Position numbers and translations under genes: made by a program. Below are positions 2,941-20,411 of a stretch of 24,000 nt of DNA, piece after piece; position 1 is the first letter of the stretch; every line of letters begins with the position of its first letter. Location: NCBI RefSeq assembly GCF_041583075.1, contig NZ_JBFHGN010000007.1. One strand, written 5' to 3'. The notes under the pieces were generated by a model that had not been told where the DNA came from, ran no database searches, and was given only the letters and a program-made list of their open reading frames with translations. Source of the stretch: Pontiella sp. GTDB taxonomy: Bacteria; Verrucomicrobiota; Kiritimatiellia; Kiritimatiellales; Pontiellaceae.

Positions 2941-2965
2941 GGTTTCACGTATCAATCGTCACTCA

Positions 2966-4297: not shown

Positions 4298-4312
4298 GTT
4301 TTCTCTCCGTTT

Positions 4313-4347: not shown

Positions 4348-4366
4348 TTTCTACACGTCTCAATCG

Positions 4367-6112: not shown

Positions 6113-6654
6113 CGCAAACCTCCTTGCGGCAACTTCACGGCCAGGGTTTTGAGGGCGCGCGACATGTGGGTTTTCACGGTGCCCAGCGAACATCCCATGA
6201 TTTCGGCGACTTCCGGGTAGGTGTGCCCCTGGTAGTAGGCGAGCACCAGCGCGGCGCGTTGCTTGGGCGGCAAGGTTTCGACGGCGGCTTTGACGCGGTG
6301 GCGGAGTTCGGACTGGGCGGTTTGCTCGTCGGGCGTGCCGGCGGGGTCGGTTTGCTCGATTTCGAACGGCTGGGTCTCCGGGCTGCGGTTGTTTTTCCGG
6401 ATGCTGTCGATCGCAATCCGCGTGGCGATGGTGAAGAGCCAGCTCTTGAATCTGGCGCCGGTTCGATAGGTGTGCGCCTTTTGGTGCACCCGCAGGAAGG
6501 TTTCCTGGAACAGGTCTTCGGCCGTTTCGCTGTTATGCACCATTCGCATCAGATATCCGTATAGCCCGCTTTTGTATCGGCGCAACAGGGCCGGGAAGGC
6601 CGTTTGATCGCCATCCCGGTACGCTTCCATCAGAAGTTCGTCGCTCTGCTCCAT
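6109..6654 (-). CDS. ECF-type RNA polymerase sigma-70 family factor
   Basis: 181 aa. Region 2 is DLFQETFLRVHQK...FKSWLFTIATRIAIDSIRK. Region 4 is LPPKQRAALVLAYYQGHTYPEVAEIMGCSLGTVKTHMSRALKTL. It is translationally coupled to the anti-sigma gene. Confidence 0.92.
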   Translation of the reverse strand: MEQSDELLMEAYRDGDQTAFPALLRRYKSGLYGYLMRMVHNSETAEDLFQETFLRVHQKAHTYRTGARFKSWLFTIATRIAIDSIRKNNRSPETQPFEIEQTDPAGTPDEQTAQSELRHRVKAAVETLPPKQRAALVLAYYQGHTYPEVAEIMGCSLGTVKTHMSRALKTLAVKLPQGGLR

Positions 6655-6680
6655 TAAACGCCGCGGTTCCTTTATTGCCT

Positions 6681-6709
6681 ATACGCCTGTCGTCGCGGTT
6701 CGGTTTACA
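6681..6709 (-). promoter_or_regulatory. candidate ECF-type (autoregulated) promoter upstream of the sigma gene
   Basis: The minus strand reads TGTAAAC (6709-6703), 17 nt, then CGTAT (6685-6681), ending 26 nt upstream of the ATG. It resembles the AAC / CGT architecture of ECF promoters such as B. subtilis sigW and sigX. This is a pattern match only. Confidence 0.35.
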
Positions 6710-6741
6710 AAAATTCCGTGCTTTTTTCGCGAAGCGGAATT
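6705..6741 (-). terminator. possible weak terminator after bioB
   Basis: Inverted repeat AATTCCG (6712-6718) and CGGAATT (6735-6741) with a 16-nt loop. On the minus strand it is followed by TTTGT. The large loop and short U-tract make this weak. It overlaps the candidate -35 element. Confidence 0.25.
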
Positions 6742-6798
6742 CTATCCCCTTTCCCGTCGGTTGGAAACGATGCGGACGGATTTTTTGAGCGGGCAGGG

Positions 6799-7761
6799 CT
6801 AGGTCGCGGCGATTTCGAGGCCAAGGGTGCGGATCATCTCGAGGTCGGACTCGTATTGGGAGCCGGCGACGGTGAGGTAGTTGCCGGTCATGAGGCCGTT
6901 GGCGCCGGCGGCAAACAGATCCTTTTGGCGGTCGCCAAGGATATGGGCGCGCCCGCCGCAAATGCGCAGGGTGGTGGAGGGCAGCAGAAAACGGTAGAGG
7001 GCGATGATGCGCAGGGCCTCTTCGGCGGAAAGGGGCGGCTGGTCCTTGAGCGGCGTGCCGGCGTGGGCATAGAGGAAGTTGATCGGGACGCTGTCGACGC
7101 CGAGCTCGCGCAGGGTGAGGGCGAGGTCGATGCGGTCCTGCCAGCTTTCGCCGAGGCCGAAGAGTCCGCCGCTGCAAACCTTGAGGCCGACCTGTTGCGC
7201 GGCCTTGACGGTGTCGAGGCGGCTGGTCCAATCCTGGGTGGAGCAGATTTCGGGGTAGTAGTTTTCGGAGGCCTCGAGATTGTGGTGGAAGCGGGTGATG
7301 CCGGATTCCTTGAGCAGCGCAAGCTCTTCGGGGGCGAGGCGGCCGAGCGATCCGCAGACGGGCGCCCGTTGGCCGCTGCCGATTGTCCTGACGGTGTCGG
7401 CGAGCTGCTCGAGTTCGTTCGAGGAGAGTTTGCCGCCGCTGGTGACCACGCCGCACATGCGGTCGCCGCCTTTGATGTCGTCGCGGATGCGGTTTTCGAG
7501 GTGCTGGGCGTCCATGAAGGGGTAGACGTCGATCGCGGTGGAGTTGTGGCCGCTTTGCGAGCAGAAGCGGCAGTCCATGTCGCATTTGCCGCTTTTCGCA
7601 TTGATGATGCAGCAGAGTTGGATCTGCTTGCCGAAGAAGGCCTCGCGGATCCGGGTGGCCCCGGCAAAGAGCGCGGTTTCGTTCGCGTCGACGAGCGAAA
7701 GCGCTTCCTCGGGCGTGCAGCCGGCCCCCGCGATGGCGTTGTTGATGATCGATTCTTGCAT
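6799..7761 (-). CDS. bioB: biotin synthase (radical SAM)
   Basis: 320 aa. It has the radical-SAM motif CDMDCRFC, followed by VVTSGG, FHHNLEAS, VCSGGLFGLGES and INFL..H.GTPL, as in BioB. No other bio genes are adjacent. Confidence 0.9.
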   Translation of the reverse strand: MQESIINNAIAGAGCTPEEALSLVDANETALFAGATRIREAFFGKQIQLCCIINAKSGKCDMDCRFCSQSGHNSTAIDVYPFMDAQHLENRIRDDIKGGDRMCGVVTSGGKLSSNELEQLADTVRTIGSGQRAPVCGSLGRLAPEELALLKESGITRFHHNLEASENYYPEICSTQDWTSRLDTVKAAQQVGLKVCSGGLFGLGESWQDRIDLALTLRELGVDSVPINFLYAHAGTPLKDQPPLSAEEALRIIALYRFLLPSTTLRICGGRAHILGDRQKDLFAAGANGLMTGNYLTVAGSQYESDLEMIRTLGLEIAAT

Positions 7762-7821
7762 GGCTTCCCGTATCGGTTGTTGAAACGGGGCACCATACGG
7801 AAGAGGCGGCTTTTGGAAAGC

Positions 7822-8307
7822 CTATTTTTCGGGAGAAGGAACCACCAGCACGCAACGGTTGGTTTGGTTCATGACGGCTTCGGAGACGCTTCCGAGCAAG
7901 GCCTTGTGCAAAAGGCCATGGCCGTGGGAACCGAGAATGATCATGCCGGCATCCAGCTCTTCGGCCTTGGCAACGATGGTTTTGGCGGCGGCGCCCTTGA
8001 TCAGCAGGGCCTGGGAGTCGACCCCTTGTTCCCGCAGTTTGGCGGAGATGCCGAGCAGTTCGTTGTGCTCGCGCTTGATCTCCTCCGCGCTGAGGTCGCG
8101 GGCGAGTTGGATGTCGCCGGGCATGCTGACGAATTCGGGCGAGTAGCCCGTGAACTGCGTGCTCTCGTAGACCACGGCCTGCGTTTCGTCGGAGGTGACG
8201 TGCAGGACCCACAACTTGGCGTCGAGCGCTTTGGCGAGGTTGGCCGCATGATCGATCACGGCCTCGGTGATTTTTGAAAAATCGACGGCGACGAGCAGGT
8301 TGTTCAT
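7822..8307 (-). CDS. universal stress protein (UspA family)
   Basis: 161 aa. Reads MNNLLVAVDFS...LWVLHV...IILGSHGHGLLHKALLGSVSEAVMNQTNRCVLVV, which includes the Usp ATP-binding type G-x2-G-x9-GS motif. AGGAGG lies 4 nt upstream of the ATG. Confidence 0.88.
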   Translation of the reverse strand: MNNLLVAVDFSKITEAVIDHAANLAKALDAKLWVLHVTSDETQAVVYESTQFTGYSPEFVSMPGDIQLARDLSAEEIKREHNELLGISAKLREQGVDSQALLIKGAAAKTIVAKAEELDAGMIILGSHGHGLLHKALLGSVSEAVMNQTNRCVLVVPSPEK

Positions 8308-8367: not shown

Positions 8368-8598
8368 TTAGGGGAGTTTGCCGCGCTGGGGGCTGATTCC
8401 GCGCCGGGGCTTGATGCCGAGCTTGTCCATGCGGTAGCGCAGGATGCGGCGGGTGGTGCCGAGATAGTCGGCGGCGCGGGTCTGGATGCCGTTGCATTTT
8501 TCCAGGGCCTCGAGGATCAGGTTGCGCTCGAAGTTGCCGACGGCTTCTTCGAGGTTGGGGAGTTGCGCGGAGTCGGGCCGGCCGTCGGGATTGCTCAT
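8368..8598 (-). CDS. stand-alone Fis-type (HTH_8) DNA-binding protein, 76 aa
   Basis: These are the last 76 codons of the 733-aa track ORF. The protein reads MSNPDGRPDSAQLPNLEEAVGNFERNLILEALEKCNGIQTRAADYLGTTRRILRYRMDKLGIKPRR, which matches the C-terminal HTH of NtrC/Fis proteins. Its own SD is GGAGG with a 7-nt spacer. ATG 8598-8596 overlaps the kinase stop as ATGA. Confidence 0.75.
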   Translation of the reverse strand: MSNPDGRPDSAQLPNLEEAVGNFERNLILEALEKCNGIQTRAADYLGTTRRILRYRMDKLGIKPRRGISPQRGKLP

Positions 8599-10586
8599 TC
8601 GGATTCCTCCAGCGCCGGCAGAACGATGGAGACGGTGGTGCCGCCGGAGCTGGTCTCGATATCCATCTGGCCGTTGTGGTCGACCACCGCGCGTTTGGCG
8701 ATGGGGAGTCCAAGCCCGAACCCGAGGGCCTTGGTGGTGATGAACGGCGAGAAAACCTTGTCGCGTACGGAGTCGTCGATCCCGCTTCCGTTGTCGGTGA
8801 CCATGATGAAGACGTTCCCGGAACCCTGTTCGGGCATGCGGCCCTTGGCGGTGACGTTGATGCGCGAGCCGGGCTTGTTGGCCAGGTTTTCGGCGGCGTT
8901 CTTGAGCAGGTGGTAGACGCATTCCTCGAGCGAGCCGGCGTCGCCGTTGATCTGCAACGCGGAGTCGTCGGCCGATAGATGGATCTTGAGGTTGTCGTGG
9001 TCGAGTTCGGACTGGATGCGGGTGACGGCGTGTTCGATGGGTTTGCGGATGTCGAGCGGTTGCAGATTGGGTTTGGGCGGGTTGGCGAATTCGTTGATCT
9101 TGTCGATGATCTGGTTGAGGCGGTCGACTTCGCTGGTGACCTGGTCGCCGAATTCGGTGCGGAAGTCCGCATCCTCGTAGCGCTTGGGCAGGAGCTGGGC
9201 AAAGGTTTTGATGGCGACGAGCGGGTTGCGGATTTCGTGGCTCATGCTGGATGCCAGTTCGTTCCAGAAGGTGGCGCGCTCGACCTGCTCCTCCTTTTCC
9301 TTGAGCAGCTTGACCCCGGTCACGTCGCGCAGCATCGTCATGGCGCCGACGCAGGTTCCGCCGTCGGAGAGGCAGCGGGTTTCTGCGGCGAGGGTGAGCT
9401 TGGTGCGGCTGTCGGTCCATTCGAGGAGATCGCGGGCGGCCATCTGTTTGACGGAGCGGCGCAACGTGTCGGCGATGCGGCTGCCGAGAACCTCGGCCTT
9501 TTGTCCGATGATCTCTTCCTCGGTCGGCTGGAGGATTTCCCGGGCCGTGCTGTTGAACCAGCGAATGATCGCGTTTTCGTCGCACGCCACGATGCCGAAC
9601 GGGATGGAGTGCAGCACCGTTTCGGCGAGGGCCTTCTGCAGGGCGGTCGCTTCGTACTGCAGCGCTTTTTCCAACGTGGTGGAAATATGGTCGGCGAGTC
9701 CGGTGAGGTCCTCGAGGTCGGTGAGGTCGAACGGAATTCCGGTGGAGCGCTGGCCAACGAAGATCCAGCCTTTGATGCAACCGGAGGCATAGAGCGGGAT
9801 GATGATCTCGGCCCCGAGCGAGTCGAGCATATGCTTGAGCATGGCCCGTTCCTGGGGATCGAAAACGTTTTCGAGCGTCTTGCGCGAAATCAAGTGGGTA
9901 TTCATTTCCAGCCAGCGGACAAAGGGGTTGTCGGGGCGGATGACCAGTTTTTCCGTGGCGGCGAGGCAGCGGGTGCCCGCCTGGTAGGCGTAGTTGTCGG
10001 TTGCTTCGGATTTGATGAAAATGCCCGCGCGCGAAACCCGGGCCGTGGCGACGAGGCCCTCGACGACGCTTTCGAAAAGCATGTCCACGTTGTCGAAATT
10101 GCGCTGCGCCTTGGAAAAGTTCTGCAGCGGAGCGGAAAACAGCGCGCGCGGCTGGGGGCGTTGTTCGGCTCTGCGGGCATTCAGGGTGGCGAGCTCTTCC
10201 TGCAGGATCTTGTTCTTTTGGCGGAGCGACAGGCATTCGATCGCCTGCTTGAGCAGGGCCTGGAATGCGCGGCGGTCGGGTTCCAGCGAGGTCGTCGCGA
10301 ACGGTTCGAGCCATTCGGCGGCAAGCATCGGGTCGGAACGGTCGGCGCCGAGCACAATGACGATGGTCGAGGGCTTTTCCTTGCGGATCGACGCGAGGAC
10401 GTCGAGGCAGTTGGCGGCCCGCAAGTCGGCGATAAGCAGCGTGTCGCCGAACTGGGCGATCCACTGCTCCAACTCGGTCTGTTCGTCGATCGGTTGCAGC
10501 GCCACGATGGAAGAGGCGATGCGGACGATGCGCCCGGAGAGGTTCTCGTCGCGGGTGTATAGGATGCATGACGGAAGGGTCTTCAT
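8595..10586 (-). CDS. cytoplasmic sensor histidine kinase: receiver-like domain, GAF, PAS, HisKA, HATPase_c
   Basis: 663 aa with no TM segment. The N-terminal ~120 aa have a receiver-like pattern (LLIADLRA) but lack the usual T/S and K. The H-box is SMSHEIRNPLVAIKTFAQLLPKRY, the N-box HLLKNAAEN, G1 DNGSGI and G2 GFGLGL. The start ATG overlaps the upstream kinase stop as ATGA. Confidence 0.88.
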   Translation of the reverse strand: MKTLPSCILYTRDENLSGRIVRIASSIVALQPIDEQTELEQWIAQFGDTLLIADLRAANCLDVLASIRKEKPSTIVIVLGADRSDPMLAAEWLEPFATTSLEPDRRAFQALLKQAIECLSLRQKNKILQEELATLNARRAEQRPQPRALFSAPLQNFSKAQRNFDNVDMLFESVVEGLVATARVSRAGIFIKSEATDNYAYQAGTRCLAATEKLVIRPDNPFVRWLEMNTHLISRKTLENVFDPQERAMLKHMLDSLGAEIIIPLYASGCIKGWIFVGQRSTGIPFDLTDLEDLTGLADHISTTLEKALQYEATALQKALAETVLHSIPFGIVACDENAIIRWFNSTAREILQPTEEEIIGQKAEVLGSRIADTLRRSVKQMAARDLLEWTDSRTKLTLAAETRCLSDGGTCVGAMTMLRDVTGVKLLKEKEEQVERATFWNELASSMSHEIRNPLVAIKTFAQLLPKRYEDADFRTEFGDQVTSEVDRLNQIIDKINEFANPPKPNLQPLDIRKPIEHAVTRIQSELDHDNLKIHLSADDSALQINGDAGSLEECVYHLLKNAAENLANKPGSRINVTAKGRMPEQGSGNVFIMVTDNGSGIDDSVRDKVFSPFITTKALGFGLGLPIAKRAVVDHNGQMDIETSSGGTTVSIVLPALEESE

Positions 10587-13090
10587 TTGGCGATGCCCTC
10601 TTCTAGAACCGGGATGTAGACATAGAACGTGGTGCCGCGACCGGGTTCGCTTTCCACCTCGATCACGCCATGGTGCTCGCTGATAATGCCGTGTGCAACG
10701 GATAGCCCCATACCGGTTCCTTCGCTTTTGCTGGTGAAGAACGGATCGAAGATCTTTTGGAGCTTATCGCGTTCGATGCCCTTGCCCGTATCGGTGATTT
10801 GCAGGCGGATGCACTTCTTCGTCGTCGCCCGTTCCCGGGTGTCGGGACTGGCGAAGCGGTAGTTGCAGTTGATGGTGCCGATGGTGATGTTGCCGCCCTC
10901 GCCGATCGCTTCGATGGCATTCAGCTTGAGGTTGATCAGGGCTTGCGACAGCAACTTGGCGTCACCGAAGATTTCGTCGTTGGAAGCGTTGTATTTTGTC
11001 GTGAGGTCGATGTGGTTCAAGGCGCGCTGTTCGTGGGTGAGTTTGAGCGTCTGGGCAATGGTGTCCTGCAGTTTCATGGGAATGAGGTGCGGTTTGGCCG
11101 GTTTCGAGAAGCTGAGCAATTCGTTGACGATGCCGTCGATGCGCGAAACCTCATGGGCGACCAAACTCGAAAAATCGTGCCGGAAGTCCTCGTCGTTGTA
11201 GCGCTTCGGCAGTAGCTGGGAGAAGGTTTTGATCGTGACGAGCGGGTTCTTGATTTCGTGGGCCATGCCCGCCGCCAAGGTGCCGACGCTCGAAAGCTGG
11301 TCCGTTCTGCGAACCTGTTCTTCAAGGCCTTTCAATTCGGTGATGTCGGTGAAGACCAGCAGCGCGCCCATCGGCTTGCCGTCGTGCCCTAGCAAAAAGG
11401 CCGAGCCCATGCGGATGTTCGCGCTCTCTTCCTCCGTGTCTGGGTTATACAGCGTTGCGTCCATGTTGCGAACGCCCGTCTTGGTTTCGAGCGTGGTTTC
11501 GAGCGCCATTTGGATGGCTCGCGGCAGGATCCCGATCGGTTTTCCGATCGCCGCATCGTCGGGGATGCCGGTGATGCGCTGCGCCTCGTGGTTGAACAGG
11601 GTAATGGTCCGGTCGGGGCTGGCCACGATCACTCCGCTCACCAGCTGGTCGAGCATGATTTCGTTGCGGATCTTGCTGTCCTGCATCTCCGTATAAAGCT
11701 GCGCATTCTCCAGTGCCACCGCAAACTGGTTGCACAGGATTTGGAGTCCATCTTGCTCGGACTTGTCATAAATCCTTCCATTCGCTCTGGAGCTGAGCAG
11801 GACTACGGACTGGATATCCGATTTTCGAAAGACTCCGATAGCGATGCTTGCATCCAGCTCTGCAAATTGCTGCCTTACTTGCTGTAAGGCTTCAGTCGGC
11901 CTTAGGCGGGCAATGATTTCCGCACAGACCGGTTCGTGCGTTTTGTGAATCATGGAAACCAGTTCGCTGTTTACTGAAACTTGTTTTTCAATGGAATCGT
12001 CTGTTGAAAACGCTGTTTCGAAAAAAAAGCCGTTAAGTGTTAAAATACAAACGTGTCTTGGTGAAAATTCATCAAGCAAAAACTCGGAAAACTGGGAAAG
12101 CAGGGCTTTGTATGTGGTTACCGCTTGAAAGATCTCCCCTGATGATTTTATGACAGCTGATATGTCGGTTGATTGGAGTACAATAAGTTTATCGGCGGCT
12201 CGCTGTAGTTTTTTTCGCGCTGGTGCCATTGAAAAAACTACAACAAGAGTGCAGACGATTTGAAGGGATACAGAGCTTTGAAAGCCCAGACCCTTAAAGA
12301 CTAGCGTCAAGCTATTCCAACTTATGAGATAAACGATCGTCATGTAGCACGCCAGTAAAGCGTATGCCATGATTTTTCGGAGGATGATGGCTACGGCTAG
12401 GATCTTGTGAACAGAGATTCCGTAAGCAACGATTGAAGTCAGCGTAAGAACGCTTGAGGCATGTGCAATTGGTACCGGGACAAAGCTGTCAAGAAGGGCC
12501 GCAAGAACTGTTCCGCATAGTCCTACAACAAGGCCTGCGATACAGGCAAAGCCAAGAAATTCAAGTTCAAGCCTTTGGTTTCCGTGCAATATTTTACGAT
12601 CACGATTGAGCGCATGGGCTAAAACGGCGAGTGCGCTTAGAAAGTAAAGGTTATATAGAGGATAGAATGGTCCGAATTTTGGGGTGGCAATGCTCATGCC
12701 GGTTTCGGCAACTTCTTTGTTTGCGGAGATTAAGAAGAGGTGATTAAAGCATAACGCTAGCATGATTAAGTTGAAAAGAATGTGAATCTTGCACTTTTTA
12801 ATGATTTCGATCCACGGCGCAGCTGGGTATCTTATTGAAAGACGAAGAAAATGAAATGTAGTGGGAATGAAGGCCGCAATGGCAAACGCTGCTTGTATTC
12901 CATTTTTTGTTAGAGCATCCGTCCTTGAGTTGGCAATGAAGACATTCGAGGCAAGCCATAAGGCCATGCAGATGGATGCTGTAAGGAATGCTTGATTTGT
13001 TTTCCGATAGTTGTTGTTTGCATATACGGCTATGCCTACTCCCAAAGAGATCAAGGAAGCTATTGATGGGAAAATGGTGATGATGTCCAT
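10583..13090 (-). CDS. membrane sensor histidine kinase: ~9 TM helices, GAF, PAS, HisKA, HATPase_c
   Basis: 835 aa. The first ~290 aa contain about nine hydrophobic helices and no sizeable periplasmic loop. A GAF-like region and a PAS domain follow. The H-box is GMAHEIKNPLVTIKTFSQLLPKRY, G1 TDTGKGI and G2 GTGMGL. The start ATG overlaps the ketosynthase stop as TAATG. Confidence 0.9.
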   Translation of the reverse strand: MDIITIFPSIASLISLGVGIAVYANNNYRKTNQAFLTASICMALWLASNVFIANSRTDALTKNGIQAAFAIAAFIPTTFHFLRLSIRYPAAPWIEIIKKCKIHILFNLIMLALCFNHLFLISANKEVAETGMSIATPKFGPFYPLYNLYFLSALAVLAHALNRDRKILHGNQRLELEFLGFACIAGLVVGLCGTVLAALLDSFVPVPIAHASSVLTLTSIVAYGISVHKILAVAIILRKIMAYALLACYMTIVYLISWNSLTLVFKGLGFQSSVSLQIVCTLVVVFSMAPARKKLQRAADKLIVLQSTDISAVIKSSGEIFQAVTTYKALLSQFSEFLLDEFSPRHVCILTLNGFFFETAFSTDDSIEKQVSVNSELVSMIHKTHEPVCAEIIARLRPTEALQQVRQQFAELDASIAIGVFRKSDIQSVVLLSSRANGRIYDKSEQDGLQILCNQFAVALENAQLYTEMQDSKIRNEIMLDQLVSGVIVASPDRTITLFNHEAQRITGIPDDAAIGKPIGILPRAIQMALETTLETKTGVRNMDATLYNPDTEEESANIRMGSAFLLGHDGKPMGALLVFTDITELKGLEEQVRRTDQLSSVGTLAAGMAHEIKNPLVTIKTFSQLLPKRYNDEDFRHDFSSLVAHEVSRIDGIVNELLSFSKPAKPHLIPMKLQDTIAQTLKLTHEQRALNHIDLTTKYNASNDEIFGDAKLLSQALINLKLNAIEAIGEGGNITIGTINCNYRFASPDTRERATTKKCIRLQITDTGKGIERDKLQKIFDPFFTSKSEGTGMGLSVAHGIISEHHGVIEVESEPGRGTTFYVYIPVLEEGIAK

Positions 13091-14322
13091 TAATCCAGAT
13101 TCCGCAGTAGAAGAGAACTATTCACACCGCCAATTCCTCGGCTATTGACAATAGAGATTCCGAGGTCATGCTGTCGCGCGTAGAGTGGAACATAATCCAG
13201 ATCACATGCGGGGTCTGGTACTTCAAGGTTTGCGGTGGGGGGGATGGTTCCATTTGCATATGATAGGCATGTGGAGATTGTTTGTATGGCTCCTCCCGCC
13301 GCCAAGGGATTTCCCGTTACTCCTTTAATTGATGCAACGGGAATGTTGTAGGCCTGAGGTCCAAATGTAGCTTTAATCGCTTCTGTTTCCATTTGATCCA
13401 AGGCTATATCGCTAGAGCCATGGGCATTGATGTATGAAATATCTTTAGGCATGAAGCCTGCGTTCAGAAGGGCTCCCTCCATGCTGTTTTTGAAACCATA
13501 ATCTTTCATATGGATATAGTCGCATGTCGTGCTATAGCCAACGATTTCTGCATATGGTGTGGCACCTCTTGCCAAGGCGCCATCCATAGACTCGATTACA
13601 ACAACCCCCGCTCCTTCCCCTAAAAATCCACCGGTTCTGAGAAGATCAAAAGGGCGGCTTACTTTTCTGGGGTCGTCCGATGTTTTCGAGAGTAATCCGG
13701 CGTAGCCCAGTCCGGTCACCACCGAAGGTATCACTACGGCATCGGTACCTCCGGCGACCGCAATTTCGGTCTCTCCCCGTTGAACGGCCGAAAACGCGGA
13801 TGCAATAGCATCAAGTCCCCCTGTGCAACTATTTGAAAGGGCTCCGATTCTGGTTGGAACGTCAAGCATTTTTGAAATCACGCTTGGGCCCTTAATGTGA
13901 AGGCAATAGGAAACCGTCGTCAATCCCTTGTCGATTCCTTTGCTTTCCAGTCGGCGATTATGGATTTCAACCAGATCAAGTCCGCCGAGAGTCGTGCCAA
14001 TGGTTACGAGGATCGGGGCAGCCGAGGCTAGTTCCTTTCTGTTAAGTTTCGCATCTTTGATTGCCATTTGGGCGGCGGTAGCAAGTAACTGTGTTCCTCG
14101 GTTTTCTCGTTTTGGTCGTAATTTCTTGTCTAAATAGTCGGTTGGCGTAAATCCCTTAACCTCACCAGCCAATTTCCACGGAATGTCGGACGCATCGAAT
14201 AGGGTGATGGGGCCGATGCCGGACTCGCCGGCGAGGAGGGAATTCCAGAAGGCTTCTTTGCCTATGCCATTGGCCGCAAGCACTCCCAGCCCGGTTATAA
14301 CTACTCTGTTTTTGCCGATCAC
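13090..14322 (-). CDS. beta-ketoacyl-ACP synthase, KAS I/II (FabF/FabB) fold, atypical triad
   Basis: Full-length similarity to FabF: NRVVITGLG, active-site SNSCTGG, GEGAG, NAHGSS, IKGVTGNPLAAGG and GIGGVNSSLLL. I prefer the GTG start at 14322-14320, with GGGGAG 9 nt upstream. That gives 410 aa and an N-terminus MIGKNRVVITGLG like canonical FabF. Alternative starts are ATG 14364 and the track's TTG 14415. Confidence 0.85.
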   Translation of the reverse strand: MIGKNRVVITGLGVLAANGIGKEAFWNSLLAGESGIGPITLFDASDIPWKLAGEVKGFTPTDYLDKKLRPKRENRGTQLLATAAQMAIKDAKLNRKELASAAPILVTIGTTLGGLDLVEIHNRRLESKGIDKGLTTVSYCLHIKGPSVISKMLDVPTRIGALSNSCTGGLDAIASAFSAVQRGETEIAVAGGTDAVVIPSVVTGLGYAGLLSKTSDDPRKVSRPFDLLRTGGFLGEGAGVVVIESMDGALARGATPYAEIVGYSTTCDYIHMKDYGFKNSMEGALLNAGFMPKDISYINAHGSSDIALDQMETEAIKATFGPQAYNIPVASIKGVTGNPLAAGGAIQTISTCLSYANGTIPPTANLEVPDPACDLDYVPLYARQHDLGISIVNSRGIGGVNSSLLLRNLD

Positions 14323-14385
14323 GCGCCTGAACTCCCCGTTGGAATCGGTGACACTTTGCAACATCCGGTCGCTGTGCCACATCCC

Positions 14386-14401
14386 TGTACAATTTTGTAC
14401 A
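14386..14401. promoter_or_regulatory. perfect 7+7 inverted repeat, candidate operator upstream of the ketosynthase operon
   Basis: TGTACAA-TT-TTGTACA, a 16-bp palindrome 64 nt upstream of the preferred GTG start, within the AT-rich divergent control region. Confidence 0.35.
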
Positions 14402-14465
14402 CGATAGAATATCAATATGTTGTATATATCAAGAATTATTACACAACCTATGGGCGAAATTCTTG

Positions 14466-14494
14466 CTGACAGCCGGCATGCCCATTGCTATAAC
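14466..14494 (+). promoter_or_regulatory. candidate sigma70-type promoter for the FadL-type operon
   Basis: CTGACA (14466-14471, in the context TTGCTGACA), 17 nt, then TATAAC (14489-14494), about 43 nt upstream of ATG 14537. Confidence 0.45.
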
Positions 14495-14536
14495 TTCACA
14501 GGTTGAATATAAACCAGCAATACAGGGGGTAAGTCC

Positions 14537-15727
14537 ATGAGGAATAGTTGCAAATACTTAGTTGCAATGGTTTTGCTATCTTCCGGTGCGTCAAGGGTCG
14601 GGGCGGATGGTTACAGGAATCCGCCGCCAACCGCAGAGGGCTTGGCGAAGGGGAGCGCAAACGCGGCCTTTGTGGACGATGCGTCCGCCACATTCTACAA
14701 TCCGGCCAATCTAGGGATGCAGACGGAAAAGTCGCTGGTGGTGGCCGGGACGTTTGCCCGTTCCGAAACCACATACTCGCCATTGCCCGGCGTTGAGCTT
14801 AAATCGGACGATCCGTTGCAGGTGCTTCCCAATATTTTCTATTCGCAACCTGTTGGGTTGGAAGGCTTGGTTGTGGGGCTGGGGCTCTCGACTCCGTATG
14901 GGCAAAACGTTTCATGGGATGCCGCGAAGCTGGTAAGTCCAGCCACCGGGGTTGTCGAAGCGGTTCCTTATGAGGCGGAAGTGGTCGTGCTGAATATCAA
15001 CCCGACGGCGTCCGCCAAGTTGCGGGAAAATCTTTATCTGGGTATCGGCGCGGATATTTTCTATTCGGACTTCACGCTGAAAGCCCTCTTTCCGTCGGGC
15101 GATCCAACTGCGCCGTTCGATGTCGAGGGTAGCGGCGACGGTTGGGGCATCGGCGCAAACGTTGGCCTGACTTGGCTGCCCGCCGAAGGCCACCGCGTTG
15201 CGCTGACCTACCGCAGCCGCGTCGATGTGACCTATAAAGGCGATTTCAAGGCAGACTACCCGAATACGGGCGATTTCCAGACCACGCTGAAATATCCGAA
15301 CACCTTCGGAGTCGGTTATGGCGTTCAGGTTAGGGACAACGTTCAGGTCGAGGCTTTGGTCGAGTGGTTGGAATGGTCGGTCAACGACACGCAAACGATC
15401 GATGCGGGCGGCGCCGAAATAGCCCTGGACAACAGTTGGGACGATACCTTTACCCTGAACTGCGGGATCGACTGGGCGGCAACCGATGCCCTGGCCGTTC
15501 GCGCGGGTTACACCTATCTGCCGTCGCCCATCCCGGACGGCAGTGCTTCGCCGTTGCTCCCGGATCTCGATCGCCACGTGCTCGGCATTGGTTTCGGATG
15601 CGCGATGGGCATGCACCAGCTCGATCTCGCATATTCCTACAGCATCTACGATGATCGCGAAACGACAACCGGAACTTATGAGGTTGATTCCAATCTCGTT
15701 TCCATGACATATTCCTTGTCTTTTTAG
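14537..15727 (+). CDS. outer-membrane transport protein of the FadL/TodX (OMPP1) family
   Basis: 396 aa. The signal peptide is MRNSCKYLVAMVLLSSGASRVGA. The N-terminal hatch region carries the FYNPANL motif. Alternating beta-strand patterns follow, and the C-terminus is YSLSF. The RBS AGGGGG lies 7 nt upstream. Confidence 0.8.
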   Translation: MRNSCKYLVAMVLLSSGASRVGADGYRNPPPTAEGLAKGSANAAFVDDASATFYNPANLGMQTEKSLVVAGTFARSETTYSPLPGVELKSDDPLQVLPNIFYSQPVGLEGLVVGLGLSTPYGQNVSWDAAKLVSPATGVVEAVPYEAEVVVLNINPTASAKLRENLYLGIGADIFYSDFTLKALFPSGDPTAPFDVEGSGDGWGIGANVGLTWLPAEGHRVALTYRSRVDVTYKGDFKADYPNTGDFQTTLKYPNTFGVGYGVQVRDNVQVEALVEWLEWSVNDTQTIDAGGAEIALDNSWDDTFTLNCGIDWAATDALAVRAGYTYLPSPIPDGSASPLLPDLDRHVLGIGFGCAMGMHQLDLAYSYSIYDDRETTTGTYEVDSNLVSMTYSLSF

Positions 15728-15736
15728 GGACATGAA

Positions 15737-16927
15737 ATGATTGCGGAAACAACGGATAAGTTGGGAACGGTATTGGTCATCGACGACGAGCGCGGACCGC
15801 GCGAAAGTCTGAGGATGGTTCTCAAATATGATTACGACATGTTCTTGGCCGAGCGCGTCGATGCCGGAATCCAACTGCTGCGCGAGCAGGAGCCCGACCT
15901 AGTCATCATGGATATCCGCATGCCCGAGAAAAGCGGGATCGAGGGGCTGCAGGAAATCCGCGAGATCAATCCGAACGTCTCCATCGTCATGCTTACGGGC
16001 TACGGCGATCTGGAAACCGCCCAGCAGGCCATCCGCTTCGGAGCCAACGACTATCTCCAAAAACCGTTCGATATCGACGAAATTCAAGCCGTCGTGAAAA
16101 AGTATGTCGAGCGGTCCAAGTTGCATTCCCGCAAGAGGCAGGCGCAGGAAGAGCTGAACAAGATGACCCAGTCGCTCAGCCGGGAAGTCGGCAAGACCAA
16201 CAAGCTGACTTCTCTGGGTGCGGCCTCGTCGGAGCTGGTACGCGACCTGCGCAACCCGCTCACCATCATCCGCGGCTACCTCGACCTGCTGAACTACGAA
16301 TTGAAGGAAAAGCAGGAATCGACCTCCGAGGAAATGAGCGAATACCTCGACCAAATCGAAACCAACGTGGAGCGTTGCGCGGAGTTGGTTGAATCGTGGC
16401 GTTCGCTCGGTCGCTTCGATTTTTCGCAGTTGCAACGCCTAAACCTGCCTAAGCTCGTGAGCGATTGCTTCCGTGATGCCGCCGCCCATTCCGAAATTTC
16501 CTTCTCTGTCCAGGTCGAAGGGCCGGAAGACCAATATGAGATGCTCGGCGAGCGCCTGCAGGTCAAGCGTGCCTTTCAGAACCTGATCGACAACGCTGTC
16601 GAAGCTCTTGATCAACAATGCTCGCCCGTCATCGTCGTTGTTTTTTCGATGACCAACAACGACATCGACGTCAAGGTCAAGGACAACGGCTGTGGGGTGG
16701 ACCCGCAAAAGATACGCTGGATTTTCGAGCCGTTCGACACGGCCGCCACCATTGAAAAGGGGGCGGGGTTGGGGCTGTTCATCACCAAGAAGGTGATCGA
16801 GGAGCACCGGGGCTCGTTGCAGTTCGAGAGCCGGGTCGGCGAAGGTTCGGTCGTCACCGTCAAGGTTCCGCAGGCCCATACCGCCTTGGGCTATTTTTCC
16901 AGCCCCGAATCTTTGGTCCAGGCCTAG
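15737..16927 (+). CDS. response-regulator receiver fused to a HisKA-like/HATPase_c kinase core that lacks the phospho-acceptor His
   Basis: The receiver is canonical: VLVIDDE, LVIMDIRMP, MLTG and LQKPF. The DHp-like helix reads SSELVRDLRNPLTIIRGYLDLL, with R169 in the place of the H-box His. The ATP-binding boxes are intact: NLIDNAVEAL, DNGCGV, FEPF and GAGLGL. Confidence 0.85.
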   Translation: MIAETTDKLGTVLVIDDERGPRESLRMVLKYDYDMFLAERVDAGIQLLREQEPDLVIMDIRMPEKSGIEGLQEIREINPNVSIVMLTGYGDLETAQQAIRFGANDYLQKPFDIDEIQAVVKKYVERSKLHSRKRQAQEELNKMTQSLSREVGKTNKLTSLGAASSELVRDLRNPLTIIRGYLDLLNYELKEKQESTSEEMSEYLDQIETNVERCAELVESWRSLGRFDFSQLQRLNLPKLVSDCFRDAAAHSEISFSVQVEGPEDQYEMLGERLQVKRAFQNLIDNAVEALDQQCSPVIVVVFSMTNNDIDVKVKDNGCGVDPQKIRWIFEPFDTAATIEKGAGLGLFITKKVIEEHRGSLQFESRVGEGSVVTVKVPQAHTALGYFSSPESLVQA

Positions 16928-16933: not shown

Positions 16934-18544
16934 ATGTCAAATGTCCTCTCCGTCGCCATCGCCGCTTGGGAAACCGAACTCGGCGCGGATGCAGTAATTG
17001 CCGATGCAGAGGGGCTTCGTCTCTACACCCCAAGCGTATGCGCTTCCGAGCGGCAGGTTGTTGCCGTGCTCAAACCCGCTTCTGCCGAAGAGGTGCGTCG
17101 CATCGTTGCCGTGGCCAACGACCATAAGGTTCCACTCTATCCGATCAGTACGGGAAAGCAGTGGGGTATGGGTTCGCGGCTTCCTGTGCGCGACGGAGCG
17201 GCGATCGTCGACCTCTCCCGCATGAACCGGATCATCGAGATCGATGTTCAATATCACTATGCCGTTGTTGAGCCCGGGGTTACGCAAAGGCAGTTGCTGG
17301 ATCATATTGCTGAACACAACCTGCCACTGATGCTCAACGTTACGGGTTCCGCATCCGAGACCAGTTTGATTGGTAATGCGTTGGATCGGGGGGTGGGCTA
17401 TTTTGATTCGCGCGTCGAGGGCATGTCCAGCATGCAGGTTGTACTCGGCAACGGCGAAACCATCCGAACCGGGTTCGGGCATTATGAAAATGCAAAAACG
17501 AAGAATCTCCATCCCCCCGGCATCGGACCGTCGCTGGACGGCCTTTTTCCGCAAGGGAATTTTGGAATCGTAACGTCCGCCTGTATCGATCTGATGCCGA
17601 AACCCGAAGCGCACATGGCGGCCATTATTAAAATCGACGCCGAGGAGCGGTTGCCTTTGCTCATCGATGCGCTTGTGCAATTGCGTTCACGCGGGGTGTT
17701 TCTAACGGTGGCGCATGTCGGCAACCGCGAGCGGTCCTATGCCACCCTGGCTCCGCTTCTCTATGGACAGCTGGTTGAAGGGGGCGATCCGGAAGGCGCC
17801 GCGACCCGGGAAAAAGCCATCCGGATGCTTGAGGATGGCGGCTTCGGTCCGTGGAGCGCAGCCGTCGGTGTACTCGGCACCAAGGCCCAGCTCAAGCTGG
17901 CCAAGAAGGAGATTCGGAAATCCTTAAAGCATTTTGCCAAGACCATGTTTCTTGACGATGCCTTGGTCGAGAAAGCCATGGCTCTCGGAGAGGCCCTTTC
18001 CTTCATACCTTTTGTTCGAAAGCAATGGATGATGCTCCGGGCCGCTAGGACGGTGTATGGCTTTACCCGTGGCGAGACAACCGATGAAACCCTTAAGTCC
18101 GTTTACTGGTCGGCGGGGGATTATGACCATCTTGACGCGCCCAATCCCGATGCAAGCAATAGCGGGGTGTTGTTTTGCGTGCCGATTGTTCCTGCATGCG
18201 GAAAAGACGTCTTCGAGGTGGCGGATTGCACTCGCGAAACGTTTTCCCGTCACGGCTTCGAGGCTGCCATAACCTTCAATCTTATGAATACCAAGGCCAT
18301 GGAAGGTGTGGTTAGCCTCTCGTTCGACCGTCGCAGCGGCGATCGGGTTGCCGCCGCCAAAGCCTGTATCCAGGAGATGGAAACGCGCTACTTGGAGATG
18401 GGCTATCCTCCTTACCGGGTCGGCATCAACTCAATGCCAACGGTGGTCAACGAAGACGATCCATTCTGGCGAACGGTTCGCGACCTCAAAAAGGTGCTGG
18501 ACCCCAACCATATCATTTCCCCAGGACGCTTCAACTTGGTCTGA
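16934..18544 (+). CDS. FAD-binding oxidoreductase, PCMH-type (VAO / p-cresol methylhydroxylase-like family)
   Basis: 536 aa. The N-terminal FAD_binding_4 pattern is VVAVLKPASAEEVRRIVAVANDHKVPLYPISTGKQWG...IVDLSRMNRIIEID...AVVEPGVT. The C-terminal motif LDPNHIISPGRF is typical of FAD-linked oxidases. It starts 6 nt after the upstream gene. Confidence 0.75.
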   Translation: MSNVLSVAIAAWETELGADAVIADAEGLRLYTPSVCASERQVVAVLKPASAEEVRRIVAVANDHKVPLYPISTGKQWGMGSRLPVRDGAAIVDLSRMNRIIEIDVQYHYAVVEPGVTQRQLLDHIAEHNLPLMLNVTGSASETSLIGNALDRGVGYFDSRVEGMSSMQVVLGNGETIRTGFGHYENAKTKNLHPPGIGPSLDGLFPQGNFGIVTSACIDLMPKPEAHMAAIIKIDAEERLPLLIDALVQLRSRGVFLTVAHVGNRERSYATLAPLLYGQLVEGGDPEGAATREKAIRMLEDGGFGPWSAAVGVLGTKAQLKLAKKEIRKSLKHFAKTMFLDDALVEKAMALGEALSFIPFVRKQWMMLRAARTVYGFTRGETTDETLKSVYWSAGDYDHLDAPNPDASNSGVLFCVPIVPACGKDVFEVADCTRETFSRHGFEAAITFNLMNTKAMEGVVSLSFDRRSGDRVAAAKACIQEMETRYLEMGYPPYRVGINSMPTVVNEDDPFWRTVRDLKKVLDPNHIISPGRFNLV

Positions 18545-19787: not shown

Positions 19788-19820
19788 GTCAAGAGTATGC
19801 CAGTACGGGGGGGTGGAAGC

Positions 19821-20411
19821 ATGGCCGGCAGGGATGCCATATGTATATTGATCGCCTATTTGCTGGGCGGCGTATGTACGGGTTACTACGTGGTTCGGTT
19901 GAAGTCGGGGCTCGATATCCGGGAACACGGAAGCGGCGGCGTGGGGGCGCGCAACGTGGGCCGCATTCTTGGAAAGCCGGGGTTTGTCGTCACCCTGCTC
20001 GGCGACTCGCTCAAGGGGGTGGTTGCCATACTCCTTGCCCGCAAGTTCGAGATCAGCGAAGCCGCCGTAGCCCTGGTGGTGGTCGCCGTCATCGCCGGGC
20101 ATATCTGGCCGCTACCGTTGCAGTTGCGCGGCGGTCGCGGAATCGCCACCGCCATTGGCGCCTATCTGGCATACGATCCCTACCTGGCGTTGCTGTTGCT
20201 CGGTTTGACCGTGGTGCTAATGGCGTTTCGCCGCGGATTCATCCTGAGTGGTTTGGCGGCGTTTCTCGTGCTGCCCGCCGCGGCCTTCGCGCTCAATCGG
20301 CCCGGTCATACGGTTGCGGCGCTGGCGGGGGCGTCGGTCATTATTCTTTTCGCTCATCGCGAACGCATCCGCCAGGCGTTTACCGAAGTATTACCCCAAA
20401 AGGAGGCCTAG
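19821..20411 (+). CDS. plsY: glycerol-3-phosphate acyltransferase PlsY (acyl-phosphate dependent)
   Basis: A polytopic membrane protein with the PlsY motifs AYLLGG, HGSGGVGARNVGR, DSLKG and GHIWPL....RGGRGIATAIG. I chose the start at ATG 19821, the second Met of the track ORF, to match the usual PlsY N-terminus. Confidence 0.88.
   Translation: MAGRDAICILIAYLLGGVCTGYYVVRLKSGLDIREHGSGGVGARNVGRILGKPGFVVTLLGDSLKGVVAILLARKFEISEAAVALVVVAVIAGHIWPLPLQLRGGRGIATAIGAYLAYDPYLALLLLGLTVVLMAFRRGFILSGLAAFLVLPAAAFALNRPGHTVAALAGASVIILFAHRERIRQAFTEVLPQKEA

Follow-up and report, generated by a model that had tools for sequence, protein, structure and literature searches.

A hypervariable allelic cassette spanning most of a ketosynthase gene and the sensor half of the adjoining histidine kinase gene in Pontiella

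Introduction

Why should base composition change abruptly inside two genes that are themselves intact? We analysed a 24,000-nt stretch of DNA from Pontiella sp. of the Kiritimatiellota (the window), in which a block of low G+C begins within the gene of a sensor histidine kinase and ends within that of a ketosynthase beside it. An earlier note on this DNA explained the block by recombination with a lower-GC donor, which would have grafted a new sensor and an enzyme onto a resident kinase core. We ask here where the block ends, how it came to differ from its surroundings and what it may do.

Results

The block lies in a conserved minus-strand signalling operon that encodes a FabF-fold ketosynthase of 410 aa (KS; 13090..14322, with the Pfam ketoacyl-synt N and C domains); an 835-aa sensor histidine kinase (HK1; 10583..13090), with nine transmembrane helices and GAF, PAS, HisKA and HATPase domains as judged from Pfam, an AF2 model and full-length orthologues; a second, cytoplasmic kinase (HK2; 8595..10586; PAS-HisKA-HATPase by Pfam); and, as the last gene, a stand-alone Fis-type HTH protein of 76 aa (8368..8598; Pfam HTH_8, E = 4e-13), syntenic in the close relative L081 and in L083 and L084. 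KS starts with GTG at 14,322 (the public call, P0123, is also 410 aa), its frame being open to 14,415 with an alternative ATG at 14,364; its TAA stop and the ATG of the kinase overlap as TAATG. HK2 is translationally coupled to HK1 and conserved (95% identical to L081; N part 32–41% identical in Verrucomicrobiota loci), and shares only 29% identity with HK1. On the plus strand, a divergently transcribed FadL/TodX-type outer-membrane channel for hydrophobic compounds (14537..15727; Pfam Toluene_X, E = 3e-43), 90% identical to L081, is kept beside the KS–kinase pair in Kiritimatiellales, and a hybrid protein with Receiver, HisKA and HATPase Pfam domains (15737..16927) is kept with the KS-HK1-HK2 core across phyla, at 40–43% identity in loci of Verrucomicrobiota and Kiritimatiellota. 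Lipids are a common theme of the genes nearby: PlsY, a FeeM-aminotransferase fusion and FadL.

As the earlier note had stated, G+C falls across this region, from ~0.59 outside the block to 0.46 inside. The drop is real and well outside chance: the minimum among 2,400-nt segments is 0.464 (from 11,801), whereas segments outside the island have a mean of 0.590, an s.d. of 0.023 and a minimum of 0.542. In 300-nt segments, values of 0.56–0.65 give way to 0.41–0.48 for ~11,850 to 13,500 and then to 0.46–0.53 up to ~14,550. The shift sits at synonymous sites. Within the single intact ORF of HK1, GC3 is 0.45 in codons 1–450 vs. 0.79 in later codons, and four-fold-site GC is 0.42 in the N part of the kinase, 0.47 in the variable part of KS and 0.86 in the C part of the kinase; most genes nearby have 0.80–0.95, the exceptions below this range being FadL (0.73) and an FAD oxidase (0.69). 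GC3 is thus not uniform and the PAS-HisKA-HATPase remainder is GC-rich, both in line with the idea of replacement.

The edges can be placed from composition and from divergence. The maximum-likelihood change point of GC3 in HK1 is codon 450 (position 11,740; log-likelihood ratio 54.1 vs. a permutation maximum of 7.5, n = 300) and that in KS is codon 49 (position 14,175), while DNA identity to L081 is ~0.9 outside 11,780–14,210 and ~0.5 inside. The left edge is therefore at ~11,740–11,760 (kinase codon ~445–450), and not at 11940 (codon 383), and the right edge is at ~14,175–14,205, inside KS (codon ~40–49), rather than in the FadL signal peptide at 14,580, as had been proposed. The block holds an essentially complete GAF core instead of half of one, and it excludes the first ~40 codons of KS instead of containing the whole gene. 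We define it as a cassette on the minus strand at 11741..14205, comprising KS codons ~40–410 and kinase codons 1–~450, from the GC3 change points, the divergence from L081 and the species pair L087/L088 described below. From 14,206 to 14,580 (KS 5' end, intergenic DNA and FadL start) the DNA is mostly 86–93% identical to L081, dipping to 68–80% at 14,508–14,597 (promoter region and FadL start); the divergent KS/FadL control region (14323..14536; 78–90% identical to L081) is ordinary AT-rich intergenic DNA outside the cassette, in which no sigma-70-like promoter or terminator match was found. Both ORFs run uninterrupted across the edges. Around the cassette we found neither a tRNA, an Rfam family nor a meaningful flanking repeat, and a search of the locus for mobile-element marks or machinery found none; on these points the earlier account holds.

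Conserved anchors lie at both ends. The 5' anchor, the first ~39 codons of KS (14206..14322, −), has a four-fold GC of 0.83, 80–97% amino-acid identity across KS alleles and a nucleotide identity of 0.77–0.93 even to distant loci. The 3' anchor (11645..11764, −) encodes a long signalling helix, residues 443–482, that links GAF to PAS in the AF2 model of HK1 (mean pLDDT 83), with a column conservation of 0.92 and a nucleotide identity of 0.77–0.98 to distant loci; in this model, the left breakpoint is predicted at the start of the helix. The variable sensor module before it (11741..13090, −) is modelled as nine helices (residues 3–302) with a beta hairpin at 120–139, followed by a GAF core at 310–432; HisKA_7TM matches it weakly and its homologues strongly. 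The transmitter part behind it (10583..11740, −) is 89–99% identical to close relatives; among 62 Pontiellaceae kinases, the median identity is 34% in the sensor half vs. 69% in the C half.

KS has the fold, both Pfam domains, and the catalytic Cys, first His and Lys of FabF (beta-ketoacyl-ACP synthase II), and is 40–45% identical to solved FabF structures. Unlike FabF, it scores under the equivalog cutoff of TIGR03150 (343 vs. 493.75 bits), is encoded beside a kinase and not among fatty-acid synthesis genes, and, when aligned to FabF from the PDB, has Asn in place of the second catalytic His. That His is absent from all 115 closest relatives (Asn in 114, Cys in one); the 114 Asn-bearing proteins comprise 96 with Cys-His-Lys-Asn and 18 with Cys-Tyr-Lys-Asn, the Cys being invariant. 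By these alignments, KS would be a non-canonical Cys-His-Asn ketosynthase. The missing His counts against reading KS as a signal synthase.

The block is a 2.4-kb hypervariable cassette that occurs in wholly different versions in near-identical Pontiella strains. Compared with L081, identity is 0.90 for FadL, 0.96 for the Receiver-HisKA-HATPase hybrid, 0.95 for HK2 and 0.89 for the C part of HK1, but 0.48 for KS and 0.34 for the N part of HK1; the window's KS is nearer to that of more distant species (0.59, 0.56, 0.70). The conspecific kinase P0004 is identical to HK1 at 386 of 387 positions in residues 449–835 and ~25% identical in residues 1–448; thus the closest C-half (99%) comes with one of the most distant N-halves (25%), while the closest N-half (P0002, 53%) comes with a C-half of merely 68%. 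L087 and L088 have flanks of 99–100% identity and share ~50% identity between KS codon ~48 and HK1 codon ~447; just within the 3' anchor, a zone of 78–87% precedes the return to 100%. The kinase halves are thus incongruent, and replacement by recombination with both breakpoints inside ORFs, as put forward before, gains support from P0004 and from L087/L088.

The same holds across the family. Identity in the N-half does not correlate with identity in the C-half among the 62 Pontiellaceae kinases (Spearman 0.086), and four pairs combine a C-half of at least 98% with an N-half of 25–49%. At an identity of at least 50% the N-halves fall into 18 classes. Of the 9 host clades with at least two members, 7 carry two or more of these classes, and clades have classes in common (ARI 0.07). 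Between classes, alleles are 25–55% identical in amino acids. The variable part of KS co-varies with the N part of HK1 (Spearman 0.52, Mantel p <= 0.0005), in a test that paired KS and kinase by proxy, from contigs of equal size, with direct confirmation for five pairs only; neither co-varies with the C part of HK1 (−0.03 and −0.01). These sequence comparisons show that, as far as the pairing reaches, the KS and sensor parts are inherited together and that neither tracks the kinase core; they also show, for the loci compared, cassette edges that are identical in independent species and alleles distributed independently of host lineage.

This architecture has a long history and a broad distribution, so the exchange grafted no new one: it replaced one homologous cassette allele by another. 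The arrangement of KS with a ~835-aa 9TM-GAF-PAS-HisKA-HATPase kinase is kept not only in Kiritimatiellota and Verrucomicrobiota but also in several further phyla; of 42 full-length loci, drawn from several phyla, 33 have KS directly upstream of the kinase; the HK1 N domain has 818 cluster representatives, nearly all ~830 aa long; and the ORF lengths of KS and HK1 are conserved. Compared with its flanks, the cassette is shifted towards AT in ~10 of 13 Kiritimatiellales loci with data, including hosts with a GC3 of only 0.55–0.63, and two isolate genomes, P. agarivorans and B12219, show the same step in composition. Low GC is therefore a property of the allele pool and not only of one donor; nor is it obligatory, since the homologous cassette of L085 has a host-like composition (four-fold GC 0.80). 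Of the lower-GC donor proposed earlier, what stands is that the synonymous sites are foreign to this host. A search for a donor allele found none closer than 75% for KS or 58% for the sensor. Candidate causes of the AT shift are import from lower-GC lineages that outpaces amelioration, and an absence of GC enrichment by recombination or selection in a segment whose divergence prevents internal recombination. From the protein comparison with P0004, we infer that import into this genome was probably recent.

Discussion

We consider it very probable that the cassette is exchanged as a whole between strains: divergence edges (L081, P0004) and GC3 change points coincide, and anchored, markless exchange of intact ORFs between near-identical flanks points to homologous recombination in the two anchors, which would replace the cassette in frame. 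The allele in the window would then be one whose synonymous sites (four-fold GC ~0.44) are still unadjusted to the host (~0.86–0.92). Several other origins can be weighed against this. A single import from an unrelated lower-GC organism, creating a novel chimeric kinase, accords with strongly foreign synonymous sites (0.42–0.47 vs. 0.86–0.92) and with edges inside ORFs, but hundreds of relatives keep this architecture with KS adjacent, homology of the "foreign" part to its counterpart in relatives runs end to end, lower-GC hosts also carry AT-shifted cassettes, and other species, L087/L088 among them, show identical edges; we rejected this version as very unlikely. Misassembly, a joining of contigs from two organisms through short sequences that they share, has to be considered, since the window comes from a MAG contig (26,751 bp) and the cassette edges fall in conserved DNA, which might let an assembler switch from one template to the other. 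It is a little less probable still: both junctions are in frame, the step recurs in the two isolate genomes, two long contigs of different samples (L087/L088) have this block with these edges, and even with mixed strain flanks each allele must lie between the same conserved flanks. Equally improbable, and rejected, is rapid divergence in place through local hypermutation or relaxed constraint with AT-biased mutation; it fits the AT shift in ~10 of 13 loci and a four-fold composition that is similar and A-rich in different hosts, but a ~50% difference between strains with 99–100% identical flanks cannot build up in place, allele classes are common to different host clades, KS is nearer to distant species than to L081, the ORFs are intact with conserved length and catalytic Cys, and there is no reverse transcriptase or template repeat of a diversity-generating retroelement. 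Least credible of all is a codon-usage effect of a hydrophobic membrane domain, or of slow-translation codons for membrane insertion. Although 51% of residues in the kinase N part are hydrophobic, the fall affects four-fold degenerate sites (0.42) and recurs in KS, a soluble protein (0.47), the L085 cassette is not low, and the polytopic PlsY in the window, at 53% hydrophobic, has a four-fold GC of 0.80; KS and PlsY rule this effect out, and the earlier note had rightly judged hydrophobic codon bias insufficient.

What the cassette does is a separate matter. It could be kept swappable for a function other than cell-to-cell signalling, with KS and sensor forming a self-contained pair in which, for example, the kinase monitors a KS-made membrane lipid or binds KS itself, and with joint diversity driven by phages, toxins or inhibitors that act on the membrane domain or enzyme, or by niche-specific lipid chemistry. 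The variable block includes the cytoplasmic GAF core and a TM bundle with one small extracytoplasmic hairpin only, so the ligand could be intracellular, or KS could bind the sensor directly; neither an export gene nor a signal-precursor gene was found in the cassette; and the lipid-themed neighbours would suit such a role. However, a cytoplasmic enzyme is no obvious target for phages or surface antagonists, and tight enzyme–receptor co-variation with many ancient shared alleles is the described signature of pherotypes (PMC6334282). We hold a self-contained pair to be unlikely, though by no means negligible.

By analogy, KS and sensor may instead form a matched signal-synthase/receptor specificity module, as in Bacillus comQXP or staphylococcal agr; taken by itself, this assignment is tentative, at somewhat less than even odds. 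KS would synthesise, or take part in synthesising, a hydrophobic, acyl-derived molecule to be recognised by its matched 9TM-GAF sensor; the FadL channel next door may pass this molecule across the outer membrane, and co-diversification of KS and sensor would yield strain-specific signalling types ("pherotypes"). In Staphylococcus agrBDCA, the hypervariable block takes in the signal gene together with part of the gene of the processing enzyme and the AgrC sensor half, with edges inside ORFs and a conserved kinase core, as in the Pontiella cassette; unlike the latter, agr has a peptide thiolactone signal, a six-helix sensor and no ketosynthase. PhcBS, CqsAS and LqsAS are not known to comprise dozens of deeply divergent alleles whose edges are fixed within genes. 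In these systems (Ralstonia PhcB/PhcS, Vibrio CqsA/CqsS, Legionella LqsA/LqsS), the gene of a fatty-acyl signal enzyme likewise adjoins that of a polytopic sensor kinase which detects this signal (PMC8578825, PMC8023197), the membrane kinase PhcS detects a fatty-acid-derived signal (PMC8578825), and the signal of a given Ralstonia strain is one of two related ones (PMC9197120); the enzymes, unlike KS, are methyltransferases or PLP-dependent acyl transferases. Stand-alone ketosynthases can also produce quorum-sensing molecules, as do Photorhabdus PpyS, which makes photopyrones, and DarB (PMC4578411), but these are FabH-like and have LuxR-type cytoplasmic receptors, whereas KS has a FabF fold, a Cys-His-Asn triad and a membrane kinase as partner.

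In Bacillus subtilis comQXPA, polymorphism affects comQ, comX and the 5' end of comP and spares the rest: the gene of the signal-making enzyme and the 5' stretch of the neighbouring kinase gene, which encodes a multi-TM sensor, are highly polymorphic between strains, whereas the 3' part of the kinase gene and the genes downstream are conserved, all lying on one strand and overlapping (PMC6334282, PMC4008528), and the Pontiella cassette has the same population pattern. The systems differ in that the enzyme here is a FabF-fold ketosynthase vs. the isoprenyl transferase ComQ, a ComX-like peptide gene is absent, HK1 has HisKA (PF00512) with GAF and PAS vs. HisKA_3, and the host is a Gram-negative PVC bacterium.

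We assign a probability of roughly 0.6 to the explanation as a whole, an allele-swap cassette that serves as a signal-synthase/receptor module. The pattern found in Pontiella matches that of strain-specific bacterial signalling loci.

Compositional boundaries within two genes

The 835-aa ORF of the sensor kinase HK1 (10,583..13,090 (−)) carries a weak HisKA_7TM match followed by PAS, HisKA and HATPase domains; the gene directly upstream, KS (ORF 13,090..14,415 (−)), carries both ketoacyl-synthase domains; and a FadL-type gene (14,537..15,727 (+)) diverges from KS. These three ORFs agree with the earlier note. HK1 is 100% identical to a Pontiella sp. (Kiritimatiellota) protein encoded on a contig of 26,751 bp. 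The G+C content of the window is 57.3%. In a 300-nt profile both flanks lie at 0.56-0.65, with 0.41-0.48 at ~11,850-13,500 and 0.46-0.53 from there up to ~14,550; among 2,400-nt windows, the lowest value (0.464, from 11,801) compares with a mean of 0.590 (sd 0.023, minimum 0.542) outside the island. The low-GC island that had been read by eye at 11,940-14,580 is thus real, but its edges move to ~11,740 and ~14,175-14,210. Likelihood change-point analysis places a GC3 step at HK1 codon 450 (window 11,740), from 0.45 to 0.79 (LLR 54.1 vs. a maximum of 7.5 in 300 permutations), so that GC3 is not uniform along the gene; in 60-codon windows it is 0.37-0.57 as far as codon ~420 and, starting at codon 450, 0.73-0.87. 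For KS, a gene of 410 aa (13,090-14,322 (−)), the same analysis puts the step at codon 49 (window ~14,175). Four-fold-degenerate GC is 0.42 in the N part of HK1 and 0.47 in the variable part of KS, compared to 0.86 in the C part of HK1 and 0.80-0.95 in most remaining genes of the window. As the first 39 KS codons have a four-fold GC of 0.83, the KS 5′ end belongs to the flank, and the island does not hold the whole ketosynthase as had been supposed. FadL (GC3 0.66, four-fold GC 0.73) and the FAD-binding oxidase (16,934-18,544 (+); 0.64 and 0.69) show a milder dip compared to GC3 of 0.73-0.87 in the other flanking genes, though both are ~90% identical to their counterparts in a close relative locus, L081.

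The step in HK1 coincides with a predicted natural domain boundary. In an AlphaFold model (mean pLDDT 83), residues 3-302 form nine helices and a small β hairpin (120-139), residues 310-432 a GAF core, and residues 443-482 a long helix that runs into the PAS domain; in this model the codon-450 step falls where the signalling helix begins. Codon bias due to hydrophobic or membrane segments does not explain the drop, in agreement with the earlier note: the polytopic membrane protein PlsY, 53% of whose residues are hydrophobic, has a four-fold GC of 0.80.

The difference in four-fold GC between the C and N parts of HK1 is +0.44 in the window, +0.24 in L081, +0.27 in L083 and L084, +0.25 in L003, +0.18 in L020, +0.14 in L019, and about +0.16 to +0.19 in L087 and L088, all related loci; GC3 in L089 is likewise AT-shifted (0.48 vs. 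0.74). The shift is small in L085 (+0.07), L002 (+0.03) and L025 (+0.04), and is absent from distant phyla in the same four-fold comparison of loci. Across hosts of very different composition, the four-fold composition of the cassette is alike and A-rich (GC 0.32-0.46 in the window, L083, L087 and L088). As the cassette is AT-shifted in most related loci and similarly A-rich across hosts, low GC is a property of the allele pool rather than of the single lower-GC donor proposed earlier. The shift may come from a lower-GC reservoir with slow amelioration or from intrinsic AT drift in a segment too divergent for internal recombination.

Divergence is confined to a cassette

Comparison of the window with L081 gives the same edges. 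Protein identity in the flanks is 0.89 for the FAD oxidase, 0.96 for the receiver-kinase, 0.90 for FadL, 0.95 for the second, cytoplasmic kinase HK2, 0.90 for the HTH protein and 0.91 for Usp; it is 0.89 for HK1 residues 431-end, 0.34 for HK1 residues 1-430, and 0.48 for KS. At the DNA level, identity is ~0.9 on either side and ~0.5 between ~11,780 and 14,210, each transition taking <100 nt. With DNA identity between alleles at ~50%, synonymous changes have reached saturation. The stretch at 14,210-14,580 (KS 5′ end, intergenic region and FadL start) is mostly 86-93% identical to L081, with a dip to 68-80% at 14,508-14,597 (promoter region and FadL start), and is part of the flank. P0004 (P0121; WP_372808310), another, conspecific Pontiella sp. 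protein, is identical to HK1 at 386/387 residues from residue 449 to the end and at ~25% before it. Divergence edges and GC3 change points coincide.

Misassembly of the contig is an unlikely source of these edges, and a block with closely similar limits distinguishes L087 and L088, long contigs from two ENA samples and of another species than the window. These two are 99-100% identical across ~14 kb of flanks, and ~50% identical from ~145 nt into KS (codon ~48) to HK1 codon ~447. At the inner margin of the 3′ anchor, ~120 nt are 78-87% identical before the two match at 100% again; an imported recombination tract with its end in the anchor would produce such a pattern. Outside the cassette, short patches of 81-90% identity at L087/L088 ~1,300-1,600 (RdgC/FAD-oxidase junction) and ~4,590 (inside FadL) look like further small recombination tracts.

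The exchange proposed in the earlier note is supported by these edges, but not as insertion of a mobile genomic island: the flanks of the block in the window hold no integrase, transposase, tRNA or meaningful repeat (only short repeats at chance level), as the first reading by eye had found, and no Rfam family; no plasmid or phage similarity was found for the block. A diversity-generating retroelement is rejected as well, because the variable region has no repeat, the ORFs with Pfam hits include no reverse transcriptase, and the divergence spans 2.4 kb rather than a short variable repeat. Gene conversion from the neighbouring kinase fails on identity: HK1 and HK2 are only 29% identical, so HK1's GC-rich half was not recently copied from HK2. 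On its two sides the block adjoins the stretches with the highest nucleotide conservation in the operon (14,293-14,234 and 11,758-11,640), both 0.77-0.98 identical even to distant loci. Given these conserved anchors and the lack of mobile-element marks, we infer that homologous recombination within both anchors would replace the cassette in frame.

Sensor and transmitter have separate histories

Among 62 Pontiellaceae kinases, identities of the N and C halves are uncorrelated (Spearman 0.086), which likewise supports exchange; four pairs combine a C-half identity of at least 98% with an N-half identity of 25-49%. The N domains of these kinases fall into 18 classes at ≥50% identity. More than one N class occurs within 7/9 multi-member host clades (clades defined by C halves at least 85% identical), and N classes recur across host clades (ARI 0.07).

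The ketosynthase follows the sensor. In a set of 22 KS/kinase pairs, assigned to each other by contig and in five cases confirmed directly, the variable part of KS co-varies with the N half of HK1 (Spearman 0.52, Mantel p ≤ 0.0005) and shows no co-variation with the C half (Spearman −0.03); the first 40 KS residues are 80-97% conserved in the same pairs. The window's KS is nearest to alleles of other hosts (75-76% to P0124-P0127, 70% to L085). L085 carries the closest full-length sensor (53%), and the sensor of L089, which holds P0124, is ~58% identical to that of the window.

The arrangement itself is old. Numerous full-length (~835 aa) relatives of HK1 at 45-61% identity occur in Pontiellaceae, including the isolates P. 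agarivorans, P. desulfatans, B12219, B1224 and S94; relatives in Chthoniobacterales are 35-38% identical; and among the matches listed in a genome-collection scan, mostly to distant relatives, more come from Lentisphaerae, Hydrogenedentota, Armatimonadota, Zipacnadia, WS1 and Nitrospirales. With only HK1 residues 1-445 as query, an exhaustive HMMER search gave 818 cluster representatives, almost all of them ~830 aa long and with the domain placed alike; a word-indexed protein search with the N half alone gave 3 matches, and a scan of JGI metagenome contigs found no close relatives of the window's sensor allele. KS lies directly upstream on the same strand in 33/42 loci with a full-length kinase. 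The Pontiellaceae neighbourhood is mostly syntenic (FAD oxidase, receiver-kinase and FadL, then KS, HK1, HK2 and Usp), and several loci also share a FeeM-aminotransferase fusion, PlsY and the HTH_8 gene. The homologous kinases of L029, L032, L034 and L039 (Margulisiibacteriota/Saganbacteria) are longer (~1,080-1,105 aa) and have no KS upstream (0/4); those of L029 and L032, the two scanned, contain two HisKA_7TM stretches. With an arrangement this old and widespread, the idea of a new sensor and enzyme grafted onto a resident kinase core fails; the locus is to be read as a conserved, hypervariable synthase-sensor cassette that exchanges alleles, and not as a new graft from a donor of lower GC.

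A divergent ketosynthase

KS has the N and C domains of a thiolase-fold ketoacyl synthase (PF00109 at 1.4e-32, PF02801 at 1.8e-22) and matches the FabF structure 1e5m in the PDB at E = 9e-86; its score against TIGR03150 fabF is 343.3 bits, below the equivalog cutoff of 493.75. In alignment with PDB FabF structures, KS retains the catalytic Cys along with the first His and Lys, but the second catalytic His is Asn (KGVTGN vs. KSMTGH), and KS thus lacks the Cys-His-His triad of FabF. That His is absent from 115/115 closest KS relatives in the protein database (Asn in 114, Cys in one), whose residues are Cys-His-Lys-Asn in 96, Cys-Tyr-Lys-Asn in 18 and Cys-His-Lys-Cys in one; the first His is accordingly Tyr in 18/115. 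The catalytic Cys is invariant among 34 kinase-linked KS genes, and residues 91-165 are the least conserved part. By sequence, the kinase-linked ketosynthases are a distinct clade and not housekeeping FabF. In L087, a frameshift splits KS into two overlapping ORFs (5,590-6,836); the gene could be a pseudogene (a signal-blind "listener"), or else the long-read assembly is in error here.

Neighbouring genes and annotation

By domain assignment, HK2 and a 76-aa HTH_8 protein lie downstream of HK1 on the (−) strand, and FadL, a receiver-kinase hybrid and the FAD-binding oxidase lie on the (+) strand. The HTH protein (8,368-8,598 (−)) is a stand-alone, Fis-type protein whose start overlaps the HK2 stop; it is like the DNA-binding tail of NtrC/AtoC-type activators, with neither receiver nor AAA+ domain. 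A response regulator of the conventional kind is missing from the KS-HK1-HK2-HTH operon; the other strand encodes a receiver-HisKA-HATPase hybrid at 15,737-16,927. A σ54-like pair read by eye upstream of KS (TGGCAC...TTGCA) has the wrong spacing. The region 19,797-22,034 (+) holds PlsY and then a 540-aa protein in which a FeeM-type N-acyl amino acid synthase/GNAT domain is fused to a class-V aminotransferase (PhnW-like). In P. agarivorans and B12219 this fusion is in synteny with the KS-kinase cluster, and it suggests a lipid or N-acyl-amino-acid theme in the neighbourhood. At 1,767-6,654 (−) lie three tandem paralogues (393, 465 and 608 aa), DUF4139-like by eye; the third, by eye an anti-σ fusion, sits behind an ECF-type σ factor gene. 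L081 has a σ54 activator and Nitro_FeMo-Co proteins at this position, and synteny therefore breaks at ~6,700. Several long ORFs, among them 6,533..8,212 (−), 6,718..8,277 (+) and 8,368..10,569 (−), are shadow frames of the real genes (BioB, Usp, HK2), with GC3 of 0.44-0.62 and translations rich in Arg/Pro/Gly.

HK1 scores 23.9 bits against HisKA_7TM (PF16927; gathering cutoff 28.6), a domain present in its full-length homologues and reaching 94-95 bits in distant ones. Matches to the AtoS (303.6 bits, cutoff 646) and NR(II) (116.9, cutoff 240) equivalogs are limited to the C-terminal half, and the public name "nitrogen regulation protein NR(II)" is therefore unjustified; the public names NR(II)/NtrB and ZraS lack support from curated cutoffs. 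Public calls of HK1 are often shortened to the GC-rich C-terminal part (proteins P0122, P0041 and P0068; for example, 456 aa for the contig of the window itself, 610 aa for P. desulfatans and 523 aa for B12227), likely because the AT-shifted 5′ half misfits the genome's codon model. Intragenic compositional steps of this sort mislead gene callers and annotation.

A putative synthase-receptor specificity module

Our comparisons show that the cytoplasmic enzyme and the sensing module of the adjacent kinase are inherited together, that many ancient alleles segregate among near-identical strains, and that the signalling core is conserved. The agrBDC locus shows the same variable-block pattern. The variable region of comQXP may also be low in GC. 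Pherotypes in Bacillus are defined by polymorphism of comQ, comX and the 5′ end of comP (PMC6334282, PMC4008528). Here, too, polymorphism stays within the enzyme gene and the sensor-coding 5′ part of the kinase gene, whose 3′ part is conserved, but the components differ from those of ComQXPA: the upstream gene is PF00109 plus PF02801, with no prenyl transferase family match as in ComQ; no ComX-like precursor gene lies between KS and the kinase, where the TAA that ends KS overlaps the start codon ATG of the kinase (TAATG) and so leaves no room for one; the kinase is HisKA (PF00512) and not the ComP-type HisKA_3 (PF07730); and a second kinase and an HTH_8 protein, rather than a ComA response regulator, follow downstream. 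Ketosynthases serve as signal synthases (PMC4578411), and fatty-acyl signals are sensed by membrane kinases encoded beside the synthase (PMC8578825, PMC8023197).

By analogy with these systems, we propose that KS and the sensor may constitute a matched synthase-receptor specificity module, a function to which we assign a probability of roughly 0.4. The GAF core lies in the variable part and leaves room for an alternative in which the sensor reads an intracellular ligand or KS contacts it directly. Slightly more tentative than the matched synthase-receptor module is its extension beyond this locus: KS and the 9TM-GAF kinase may represent an unrecognised, widespread lipid-based system of cell-to-cell signalling or kin recognition (PVC bacteria plus several other phyla), in which the non-canonical Cys-His-Asn ketosynthase would be the autoinducer synthase and the specificity module of Pontiellaceae would have diversified to dozens of pherotypes, swapped as an in-frame cassette between recombination anchors. 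A literature search found no such system for Pontiella or Kiritimatiellota.

Strain-specific signalling types are a central model for the evolution of bacterial communication and kin discrimination, and are known mainly from peptide systems of Firmicutes. If our reading is true, this locus would be an example from a PVC lineage of marine polysaccharide degraders in which a ketosynthase works with a membrane-GAF sensor; it would carry the strain-type model over to lipid-type signals and a barely studied phylum; and it would indicate a new enzyme-receptor family, testable because cultured Pontiella strains exist.
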